52,695 nucleotides of DNA from a virus, in the IMG/VR virus record IMGVR_UViG_3300047994_000145. One strand, given 5' to 3'. A model generated the notes under the pieces. It was not told where the DNA came from, did not search any database, and was given only the letters and a program-made list of their open reading frames with translations. This document shows, piece by piece, positions 6,421-35,318 of this stretch (the stretch's first letter is position 1; each line of letters opens with the position of its first letter). The position numbers and the translations under genes are program-made.

Positions 6421-6655
6421 GTTTTATCTCCGTGTAACCATAGAATTTTGTTATAATATCTATATTCTTTTTTAACCCTTCCGTCATTCCTTCAATCTCA
6501 GCGATCCAATAAGCCACCACAATGCAAGGGCATCCGCTTGCTATGGCCATAATCGCGATGGCTTCGTCTACGCCGGTGTGGTCTCTATTGGTCTCATACC
6601 ATTTCTGAACAAAGCTCTTTCTCTCAGCACTGTATCGACTTAAATCTTCAATCAC
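6413..6655 (-). CDS. Hypothetical protein with one hydrophobic segment (80 aa)
   Basis: ORF track; overlaps the lysozyme stop; AIAIMAIASGCPCIVVAYWI segment. Confidence 0.55.
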   Translation of the reverse strand: MIEDLSRYSAERKSFVQKWYETNRDHTGVDEAIAIMAIASGCPCIVVAYWIAEIEGMTEGLKKNIDIITKFYGYTEIKHE

Positions 6656-7104
6656 GTGATCTCCTCAGTTACAGGTTTTTCAAACAATTCCTTCTCAGCT
6701 TGCCTTCTGGCTACCAACCCCGGTACAATATGAGGTCCAACGTGTACCCACTTTAAAAACTCGCGGGATGCGCCTTCGTAGTCACCTTCTTTAACTTTCT
6801 TAAGCAGTGTTGAATTTTGCAACGTTCCTAACCCTAAGTTATATGCAAAGCATACCAAGGATGAAAATTGGTTGTCATTGCAGATTATGGCAGGACCTAG
6901 TAGCGTCTTAGTTCCATTAGAAAAACTCATCAAATCTGTCATCAGCAGGGTGTCTGCCATTTCTTGGGTTATGGTCTCACCTTCTAACATATCTGTTCGG
7001 TGACCGTATCCTACTGTAGGCAGCCCTCCCACATCTAGGTACACTTGCAGCCTGCACCCTTCAAATTTCTTAATAAGTTCAATACCTTCGTTACTCAATT
7101 CCAT
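6652..7104 (-). CDS. Endolysin, T4-lysozyme-like (glycoside hydrolase family 24)
   Basis: IELIKKFEGCRLQVYLDVGGLPTVGYGH gives the Glu...Asp...Thr catalytic pattern. Start set at the Met preceded by GGAGA (the ORF track extends to 7170). Confidence 0.85.
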   Translation of the reverse strand: MELSNEGIELIKKFEGCRLQVYLDVGGLPTVGYGHRTDMLEGETITQEMADTLLMTDLMSFSNGTKTLLGPAIICNDNQFSSLVCFAYNLGLGTLQNSTLLKKVKEGDYEGASREFLKWVHVGPHIVPGLVARRQAEKELFEKPVTEEIT

Positions 7105-33320: not shown

Positions 33321-33391
33321 GATTATATTAACAATGCCGAGGACCACGAAGGAAGTAATTCCCGACTAACCGAGGTATAAAGGAAATTGCC

Positions 33392-33434
33392 ATGGCCGCA
33401 ATTTATGCAAACCCCCAAAATCAAGTAGCAGCTT
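33392..33434 (+). CDS. Major capsid protein, exon 1 (MAAIYANPQNQVAA + first base of a Leu codon)
   Basis: AAGGA RBS 7 nt upstream. An in-frame TAA begins at the last exon base (33434-33436). CAGCTT pairs with the internal guide GAGCTG at 33893-33898. Confidence 0.55.
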
Positions 33435-33445
33435 AAACTTATTTG

Positions 33446-33474
33446 TTGACTTAAGTAAAATAAAATGGTATATT
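33446..33474 (+). promoter_or_regulatory. Sigma70-type promoter inside the intron (TTGACT-17 nt-TATATT, with TGg extended -10), leaderless for the GIY-YIG ORF
   Basis: The ATG at 33481 lies exactly 6 nt after the -10 box, with no SD. Confidence 0.55.
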
Positions 33475-33480
33475 AAACAT

Positions 33481-33834
33481 ATGTTTAGTGATAAACCCAT
33501 GATCATATATTTTGTCAGATTAAATGATGAAATAGTTTATATAGGGCAGTCGAAACTCTCTTTGGAAGCAAGAAAAAAACAACACGAATACAATGCACAA
33601 AGAGGCAAAGGATATGTGATAGGTGCAGGCTTAAGAAAGCACGGCGCTGATAAATTCACCTGGAACGTACACAGTGTGTACTACAACCAGGTAGACTTAG
33701 ATGCAGCGGAAAAACATTACATGTCTAAATACAAACCTAAGTATAACATTAACTTAGGAGGCGAAGGGCGAGGAGTTAGAAAAAAAGATTCTATAACTCC
33801 TTGGAACAAGGGTAAAAAAGGTATGCTGTCCTAA
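33481..33834 (+). CDS. GIY-YIG homing endonuclease, catalytic domain only (117 aa)
   Basis: IIYFVRLNDEIVYIGQS (GIY...YIG); the conserved Arg; AEKHYMSKYKPKYN. The ORF ends at PWNKGKKGMLS with no DNA-binding domain. Confidence 0.8.
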   Translation: MFSDKPMIIYFVRLNDEIVYIGQSKLSLEARKKQHEYNAQRGKGYVIGAGLRKHGADKFTWNVHSVYYNQVDLDAAEKHYMSKYKPKYNINLGGEGRGVRKKDSITPWNKGKKGMLS

Positions 33835-34071
33835 ACCCTAACAGCAGACTAAAATCTTACAAAAGATTTAGTTTTACTTATGTACAATTTTAGAGCTGGA
33901 TAAATTTTCTCTAATTGACTTGGAAGCCTAGCAGTAGGTGACAAGGCGGAAGGTAAAAACCACCGTGAACGACTAAATGAGATGACGCCGAAAGGCGGTG
34001 TGATAGTCTGAACACTGGTATAACAAAAGAAACCAGTGAGGCAGGGGTTAATAACCTGCGATAACAAATTG

Positions 34072-35318
34072 TAAAAGAGCTTTACACAGATTCAAATGAA
34101 TATATGAAGGATGTCGTTTATAAAGAGAATCCTTTCTTTGCTTTAGTGCCTAAGAATGAGTCTCCGGACGGCTTTGCTGGTAAGTATATACCAGTCCCAA
34201 TCGAATTCGGAGCACCCCAAGGGCGTGACCATACGTTCGCTCTTGCTCAGAGTCAACAGACTCCTACTAACTTAGCGTCTTTCTTCGTGTATGTGGTTCA
34301 GGACTACCAATTAGTCACGATCACCAACTTGTTGATGGAACAGACTAAGTCAAATGCCGGAGCTTTCGTCGATGAAGCTAAATTACAGCTCGACGGTGGA
34401 TTCAGAACTTTGACCAACAATATCGCATTTGAATTGTTCGGAGACGGTTCGGGAACACGTGGTTTCATCGCATCAGCATCTAGCCCATCCGTTGGTGTAT
34501 ACGCTATCGTGTTACAGAACGTTCAACAAATTGTTAACTTCGAACCAGGAATGACGCTGATCAACTACGTGTACGCTGGTGGGGTTATTTCTAATATCAG
34601 TGCTACAACTGGATTTGTCCAGAAAGTTGACCGTGCCAACGGTATCGTTACTATCCTCACTTCAAGTGGCGGTGCTGATTCCTCATGGGCAGCTGCTGGA
34701 AACGCCCTGGGAGTCAATGGTGATATCGTTCTAGGAACAGTGAGCACTGGATCGGCTTTAGCATTGTCAGGACTAGCTGCTTGGATTCCAATAGCAAGTC
34801 CTGCTGCTAACGACAATTTCTGGGGAGTTAACAGAAGCCAAGACCCAACTCGTTTGGCTGGGTTACGCTACAATGCTCAGAACTACACGATTGAAGAAGG
34901 GATTACAAACGCCCTTGCATTCATCAACCGTGAAGGTGGACGACCAGATCTCTGTATCATGGACTTTGCATCTTATGCTGCTCTTGTAAACAGCTTAGGA
35001 GCTAAAGTTCAATATGTTCAAGTAGACCATGACGAAGTTGAAGTTGCCTTCCAAGGTATCACCTTCCAATCGGCATACGGACGTATCACGGTACTTGCTG
35101 ACCGCTCTTGCCCTCCACAGACTGCTTATATCTTAACGATGAGCACCTGGAAACTTCGCTCCTTAGGTAAAATACCGCACATTTTGACCTACGGAATGGA
35201 AGGGTTAGAGGGATTACGAGTTGGAAATGCTGACGCCTTAGAAATTCGCATCGCATACTATGGAAATTTAGTGTGCTCAGCCCCAGGTTGGAATTGCGTA
35301 GTACAATTAAGCGCTTAA
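34072..35318 (+). CDS. Major capsid protein, exon 2. An alternative unspliced start would be the ATG at 34104.
   Basis: The frame is open from 34065. The ATG at 34104 has no SD. The joined product is 429 aa. A strong terminator follows. The capsid call rests on position and size. Confidence 0.65.

Follow-up and report, generated by a model that had tools for sequence, protein, structure and literature searches.

Group I introns that interrupt phage capsid genes are already documented. In the mycobacteriophage LittleE, splicing of a capsid-gene intron with a homing-endonuclease gene inside it was proved by reverse transcription polymerase chain reaction and N-terminal sequencing, and the lactococcal phage Tuc2009 is cited as having a capsid-gene intron as well (PMC3706429). 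The subject here is an insert of 637 nucleotides (nt) at positions 33435-34071 of the virus record IMGVR_UViG_3300047994_000145 (the window, meaning the whole 52,695-nt stretch that was analysed; all features below lie on its plus strand). The insert splits an SU10-type major capsid gene after codon 14, that is, after 43 nt, and at a probability of about 0.92 it is a group I intron of the mobile type, a further example of those already described. As in LittleE and Tuc2009, it is the major capsid gene that is split, a U ends exon 1 and a G ends the intron (PMC3706429), whereas the two phages have their introns at other sites and in capsid genes of other families. In LittleE the endonuclease is of the HNH type and its gene lies on the opposite strand, in contrast to the GIY-YIG gene of the window, and no sequence relationship was found between the window intron and that of LittleE.

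The interrupted capsid gene and its predicted splice junction

An initial sequence-only reading of the window had pointed out that the first ATG of the capsid open reading frame (ORF), at 34104, has no Shine-Dalgarno sequence and that its frame is nevertheless open back to 34065. Both observations hold, the nearest upstream stop being the TAA at 34062. The same reading had described, further upstream, a 14-codon ORF with an AAGGA sequence and a TAA that begins at the last exon base, and these too are in place. Direct reading puts AAGGA at 33380-33384, 7 nt 5' of the ATG at 33392, as the Shine-Dalgarno sequence of the true capsid start. Exon 1 (33392-33434, 43 nt) comprises MAAIYANPQNQVAA and the first base of a Leu codon, contiguous in the homologues, and exon 2 (34072-35318, stop codon included) is identified as SU10-type major capsid protein by Pfam family PF17236 and by its homologues. 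The frame arithmetic of the sequence-only reading was correct: 43 + 1247 nt give 430 codons including the stop, and thus a capsid protein of 429 amino acids. The TAA lies across the 5' splice site (33434-33436), its first base being the last base of the exon, and is kept in the sister contigs L073, L122 and L123; in unspliced RNA it ends translation of exon 1 after 14 codons.

Protein homology supports these exons in detail. With the spliced capsid product as query, 2,599 homologues were retrieved, the best full-length ones (more than 100, of 425-446 amino acids) having 73-81% identity over 100% of the query; the closest capsid relative is P0001 (94% identity). The first 30 residues of the spliced product match more than 100 uninterrupted homologues without a break, at about 80% identity. 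Homologue N-termini read MAA(V/I)YANSSNQIAALKELYTDDKEYMKDLVYKENPF continuously over the AA/LKELY junction (a slash marks the splice site here and below), and in uninterrupted capsid homologues MAAVYANSSNQIAALKELYTDDKEYMKDLVYKENPF runs directly over it. The alignment with intron-less relatives that the sequence-only reading had proposed was likewise contiguous in DNA: in the relative L124 (JAFMOA010000366.1) the junction reads ...CAGATTGCCGCTCTTAAAGAGTTG..., and the intron-less allele of this type is CAGATTGCCGCTCTTAAAGAG. The position of the junction is unique because of the Leu codon, a slide of one base in either direction giving a stop or Val. At this place L124 (L124:3040-3050) has GCC GCT CTT against GCA GCT T/TA in the intron-bearing alleles (33426-33434 plus 34072-34074 in the window); the differences are synonymous and confined to bases that in the intron-bearing alleles form the splice-site helix P1 and the likely homing site, and those bases are invariant in the four intron-bearing contigs.

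The insertion is found at the identical site in three further contigs, L122, L123 and the IMG/VR contig L073; the proteins P0109 and P0110, called as 402 amino acids, are the interrupted copies on L122 and L123. Between the four interrupted genomes the codons of exon 1 differ mostly synonymously (GCC/GCA, TAT/TAC, AAC/AAT, CAA/CAG, and Ser AGC/AGT/TCA/TCG, thus including switches between AGY and TCN). Coding selection on exon 1 therefore persists in intron-bearing genomes, and such selection is sensible only if exon 1 gets joined to exon 2.

The second line of evidence for the boundaries is RNA pairing. An internal guide sequence, TTTTAGAGCTG (33888-33898), is the reverse complement of the junction CAGCTT/TAAAA at 11 of 11 positions, with one G.U pair (T33434/G33893). 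Its 33893-33898 half pairs with the exon bases CAGCTT (33429-33434) to give P1, with the U33434.G33893 wobble at the splice site followed by five Watson-Crick pairs, and its other half, UUUUA (33888-33892), gives P10 with the first exon-2 bases UAAAA (34072-34076). The P1 pairing is invariant in all four contigs; P10 has 3 base pairs (bp) in L122 and L073. Over both strands of the 52.7-kb window the guide 11-mer is found a single time, with 0.17 occurrences expected, and it stands immediately 5' of P3, in the slot expected for a guide sequence. There is no P2 in the window intron, and several ORF-less relatives likewise go directly from guide sequence to P3. The intron ends, by direct reading, in a terminal guanosine (omega G) at 34071, and the 3' end is conserved in the family described below as AACA(A/G)..UG/. 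The 11-nt guide, both helices, the wobble and G34071 had all been predicted in the sequence-only reading, and all are confirmed in the sequence. The limits 33435-34071 are thereby set independently by protein homology and by the U/...G/ ends together with the guide pairing.

With respect to the surroundings, a portal gene and a scaffold-like gene lie 5' of the capsid ORF. In L073 the capsid gene is split a second time, directly after ATGAAGGAT (the MKD codons; L073:3941-4553), by an insert that is unrelated in sequence to the intron; a Cys-rich ORF (NMKTCKRKDC...CKSCQKKY...) comes after it. It appears that this capsid gene has an insertion hot spot at its 5' end.

Core structure and the intron family

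Between the guide sequence and the 3' splice site the RNA has the helix order P3-P4-P5-P6-P7-P3'-P8-P7'-P9, in which P3 crosses P7 to make the group I pseudoknot. The 5' strand of P3 (33905-33911) pairs with 33979-33985. It is followed by P4 enclosing P5 (33919-33945; 33919-33922 with 33942-33945, and 33926-33930 with 33935-33939), as seen in both the family alignment and the minimum-free-energy fold, and by P6 with P6a (33946-33966; 33946-33949 with 33963-33966, and 33952-33954 with 33959-33961). The 5' strand of P7 (33969-33975: A, bulged C33970, GACUA) pairs with the 3' strand UAGUCU (34004-34009), as read from the family alignment and family variants; both strands lie within the core motifs AACGACTA (33968-33975) and GATAGTCTG (34002-34010). 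The G33971-C34008 pair, beside the bulged nucleotide, is presumed to be the guanosine-binding pair. P8 is the hairpin CGCC GAAA GGCG (33986-33997), P9 a hairpin of 7 bp (34013-34038, also in the family alignment) and P9.1 the hairpin GCAGG/CCUGC (34041-34059), which shows compensatory differences as GUAGG/CCUAC in L122 and GUGGG/CCCAC in L123 and L073. An unconstrained minimum-free-energy fold of 33899-34071 recovered P4, P5, P6, P6a, P7, P8, P9 and P9.1 (z = -3.35), including the GAAA-capped P8, the 7-bp P9 and the 5-bp P9.1 proposed in the sequence-only reading. P3 to P6, which had been drawn there as tentative, are now defined by covariation in a large family.

That family was reached with a pattern of two conserved strands, GAACGACTAA...GATAGTCTGAAC, which has matches in at least 120 viral contigs, several of them holding two or three copies. 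The structure was drawn from the window alone and scored on an alignment of 87 distinct family cores (3,366 cells). Standard pairs were found in 94.9% of the cells, against 38-43% when the 3' partners were slid by 1-3 columns; 28 of the 40 pairs showed changes on both sides (652 cells), and none of 500 shuffles reached any of the observed values. The helices that covary in this alignment are P3 (7 of 7 pairs, with 97.4% of cells paired), P5, P6 (6 of 7 pairs, P6a included), P8 (4 of 4) and P9. P7 is invariant among the 87 cores because the pattern had selected its strands. Members subsequently found with a covariance model do show compensatory changes in P7, ACUA/UAGU becoming ACUG/CAGU or ACUU/AAGU, and A[C]G.../...CU becoming G[A]G.../...CC, and the family variants that can be read in register retain the G-C pair. 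This covariation in variant members establishes the P3/P7 pseudoknot. On the family model the window core scores 156.7 bits, where most complete members reach 100-170 bits; being within the family range, the ribozyme part is without sign of decay.

When the covariance model (R1, built from the 87 cores) was applied without filters to the Twort record AF132670.1, its top three matches were the three annotated group I introns of orf142, at 26.4, 22.4 and 14.7 bits (E = 2e-5, 1.5e-4 and 6.5e-3, values that are rough, the database being small). P3, J3/4, P4-P6 and AACGACUA were aligned in register. On T4, R1 gave no match in td and in nrdB only an insignificant one (E = 0.83).

A blastn comparison of the intron region with annotated phages gave five matches, all weak and without an intron annotation. 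In one of these, window positions 33902-34041 are 76% identical to a stretch of MW202674.1 (L001) that sits between two coding-sequence fragments, both annotated 'P22 coat protein'; this stretch is an ORF-less relative in an unrelated coat gene. Inside this ORF-less member the record (L001:2692-4207) also annotates a 39-amino-acid 'hypothetical protein', and splicing is deduced to give CAUGUGGAU/...G/AUGACACAA. Family members in other genes each carry a guide that fits their own exons, as in L001 with CAUGUGGAU/aaagguau-GUCCACAU. In several environmental phage contigs two or three members lie within 1-2 kb (L016:818-2338; L026:2134-3812; L061:5904-7033; L082:5994-7685), presumably within a single gene or neighbouring genes. 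Two cultured phages have unannotated members by model R1: Roseobacter phage CRP-118 (OR420741.1, L148:2493-2656; 98.3 bits), in which the match lies between two coding-sequence fragments annotated 'ribonucleotide reductase' (gp44 and gp45), and Desulfovibrio phage 7757 (OR395405.1, L149:2499-2663; 114.9 bits). A search of viral contigs for an ORF-less copy at the capsid site itself, with the pattern GCAGCTTAAA-N(3-33)-TAGAGCTG, returned 20 unrelated coding matches.

The decaying endonuclease gene and the case for splicing

The P1 loop, which extends from the 5' splice site to the guide sequence, contains an ORF of 117 amino acids (33481-33834) that matches the GIY-YIG family PF01541 of Pfam over residues 8-89 (31.8 bits against a cut-off of 22.6). 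The sequence-only reading had placed a GIY-YIG endonuclease with its own promoter here; the family, the location and a promoter-like site bear this out, but the ORF is a truncated remnant with the catalytic domain only and not a full homing endonuclease. The sister contigs L073, L122 and L123 have ORFs of 211-221 amino acids, as called, at the same site. In the alignment with L122 and L123 the window ORF has a 30-nt gap between 33799 and 33800 and one of about 217 nt between 33821 and 33822, a net loss of about 247 nt that is out of frame and removes the C-terminal DNA-binding half. The last approximately 50 nt of the original gene persist as an out-of-frame remnant (33835-33887), with YAVLNPNSRLKSYKRFSFTYV in another frame. 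The C-terminus of the L122 ORF has a weak I-HmuI NUMOD-like match (E = 0.0017, under the cut-off), and a search of PDB sequences with the full-length endonuclease gave nothing meaningful. As the DNA-binding half is lost, the intron has probably ceased to be mobile in this genome.

A sigma-70-like promoter precedes the gene (33446-33474), with a -35 element TTGACT (33446-33451), a 17-nt spacer and a TG-extended -10 element TATATT (33469-33474), 10 of 12 positions matching; it is conserved in L073, L122 and L123 too. In 4 of 4 copies 5-6 nt separate the end of the -10 element from the endonuclease ATG (6 nt in the window), with the bases between them varying, and no Shine-Dalgarno sequence precedes that ATG in the four copies. 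The -10-to-ATG sites are at 33469-33483 in the window, L122:2127-2141, L123:2115-2129 and L073:3046-3059. This arrangement suggests that the endonuclease mRNA may be leaderless, and the enzyme would then be translated only from the transcript that the promoter provides. A long-range helix of 16 pairs, 33446-33461 with 33871-33887, appears to close the P1 loop. Over the four contigs 92% of it is paired, compared with 32-46% for slid strands, and both sides are changed in 4 pairs; its strands overlap the -35 hexamer and the last codons of the original gene, respectively. Drawn as it is from only four sequences, this helix is suggestive.

From the anatomy of the locus, along the established group I pathway, we infer the following course. 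The late transcript would consist of exon 1, intron and exon 2, and ribosomes starting at ATG 33392 would halt at the UAA over the 5' splice site while the compact P3-P9 core folds. Exon-1 CAGCUU would pair with GAGCUG (33893-33898) to form P1, the U.G wobble marking the splice site, and P1 would thus bridge the 458-nt loop containing the endonuclease gene, the ends of which the 16-bp helix would hold together. Free guanosine, bound at G33971-C34008 of P7, would attack after U33434; omega G34071 would then take over the binding site, P10 (UUUUA with UAAAA) would align exon 2, and the exons would be ligated. The resulting mRNA, GCAGCUU/UAAAAGAG, would encode the full 429-amino-acid capsid protein.

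Several observations weigh against the intron reading. The Rfam scan with a group I model that had been proposed in the sequence-only reading was negative: RF00028 gave no match to the window either at its gathering score (50 bits) or at E <= 10, and none in 16 related loci, yet in control runs it reached T4 td (40.3 bits, E = 9e-8), nrdB (35.7 bits) and the three Twort orf142 introns (64-101 bits). P1 has 6 bp only and must form over the 458-nt loop, and P3 in the window contains one U.U mismatch (33907/33983), at a position that is U-A in the sister intron in L123. A tightened automated survey of P1/P10 pairings in the family gave many convincing single pairings, with a weak aggregate of 9.06 against 7.14 for shuffled sequences; a looser survey, with restoration of the ORF, was uninformative, since a solution was obtained in 90 of 91 elements and also in 447 of 455 shuffled controls. 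Finally, we infer the splicing competence of the window copy solely from the requirement for an intact capsid protein. With regard to Rfam, td (L126:11596-11826) and nrdB (6509-6749) of T4 are both under the gathering score, so that default annotation would overlook even these classic introns. RF00028 has blind spots, yet its negative result stands, and class membership accordingly rests on anatomy, covariation and the detection of the Twort introns by R1. Other Rfam matches, RAGATH-7 (19.3 bits against a gathering score of 111.8, E = 0.085) and U7, were set aside as chance.

The alternative that survives best, though an improbable one, accepts group I descent and holds that this copy cannot splice, the metagenome having yielded a defective genome or a capsid pseudogene. 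The degraded endonuclease gene and the mismatch in P3 would fit such a copy. However, the score of the window core is high within the family range, and all of the remaining helices are intact, as are the guide sequence, omega G and the reading frames of both exons; an intron in an essential gene is, moreover, expected to lose its endonuclease and keep its ribozyme, as in T4 nrdB. It is very improbable that a free-standing GIY-YIG gene simply occupies a long intergenic spacer, with the capsid protein starting at Met34104 (404 amino acids) and the 14-codon ORF a leftover or unrelated. Such genes are common between phage genes (SegG in T4, for example), the endonuclease gene has its own promoter, and gene callers give the corresponding 402-amino-acid products for the sister contigs. 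On this account, though, the capsid protein would lose 26 residues that are conserved in every full-length homologue and that the proposed splice restores exactly; the codons of exon 1 would have no reason to evolve synonymously in four intron-bearing contigs; no Shine-Dalgarno sequence precedes 34104; and the 'spacer' is a covarying structured RNA the limits of which coincide with the gap deduced from protein homology. Removal of the insert by another route (group II splicing, protein splicing of an intein, or translational bypass), for which the interruption of the gene is the sole argument, can be dismissed: stops in all frames of the insert and the end of exon-1 translation at the splice-site TAA exclude an intein, the Rfam scans showed no group II family and there is no ORF for a reverse transcriptase, the 637 nt exceed the bypass of T4 gene 60 (about 50 nt) by an order of magnitude, and the RNA topology and conserved motifs are those of group I.

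If the group I intron splices as outlined, the most highly expressed structural gene of the phage would depend on RNA self-splicing, in an intron caught with its endonuclease gene decaying and its ribozyme kept, a stage that the homing-cycle model predicts where the host gene is essential. For annotation, the consequence is that gene callers give a capsid protein of 404 amino acids without the conserved N-terminus, together with an orphan 14-codon ORF, where the true product has 429, and the sister genes are mis-called alike (402). RF00028 detects none of the scanned members of an abundant phage intron lineage (the window and the 16 related loci), and split genes in viromes and in the cultured phage CRP-118 (ribonucleotide reductase) therefore go unrecognised; model R1 could serve to find them. 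A broader proposal is possible but doubtful: that a large group I lineage missed by Rfam, compact, without P7.1/P7.2, often without P2 and abundant in the genomes of environmental phages, includes a capsid branch with the endonuclease gene in the P1 loop, which the covarying helix closes, the gene being expressed from a leaderless message and never from the splicing precursor.

Comparison with the Twort and T4 introns

The strands A[C]GACUA/UAGUCU of P7 are common to the window intron, T4 td, T4 nrdB and the Twort introns. The Twort orf142 introns (AF132670.1), of subgroup IA2, are found, as here, in a phage structural gene, and they share with the window intron the succession of P3, AAUU and P4 (GGAA), the P7 strands AACGACUA and GAUA(UA)GUCUGAAC, a similar shape of the P9 hairpin and the 3' end AACA..UUG. 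They differ in having a P7.1/P7.2 insertion between P7 and P3', which appears as a large insert in the R1 alignment, whereas in the window P7 leads directly to P3', with only AA between the end of P7 (33975) and the start of the P3' region; in both td and the Twort introns this interval holds about 30-50 nt more. As P7.1/P7.2 are absent, the window intron is not placed in subgroup IA2, and the low cross-scores between Twort and R1 (15-26 bits) point to kinship at the level of the class and not to a close family.

The T4 td intron, to which the sequence-only reading had likened this one, is also a group I intron with a GIY-YIG endonuclease gene (I-TevI), and an early in-frame stop likewise ends exon-1 translation of its unspliced RNA. 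The I-TevI gene, too, has promoters of its own from which it is expressed. The td motifs given in that reading were correct, since td contains AACGACUAU and AUAGUCUG, and the P7 motifs AACGACUA and AUAGUCUG are identical in the two introns. The likeness thus holds for the P7 strands and not for the rest of the architecture: td has P7.1/P7.2, which the window intron lacks, and its ORF forms a loop off the P6 region, whereas that of the window is in the P1 loop. I-TevI and the window endonuclease have marginal similarity (BLASTP E = 0.074), with the YIG..R..H region aligned, and the td host gene is metabolic where that of the window is structural.

The state of the endonuclease gene finds its parallel in T4 nrdB, where the intron is likewise kept and the endonuclease gene internally deleted, the T4 record describing I-TevIII as 'defective ... 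deletion in proximal half'. The two deletions fall on opposite ends of different enzymes, I-TevIII being an HNH endonuclease with its N-terminal half deleted, whereas the GIY-YIG enzyme of the window has lost its C-terminal DNA-binding half.

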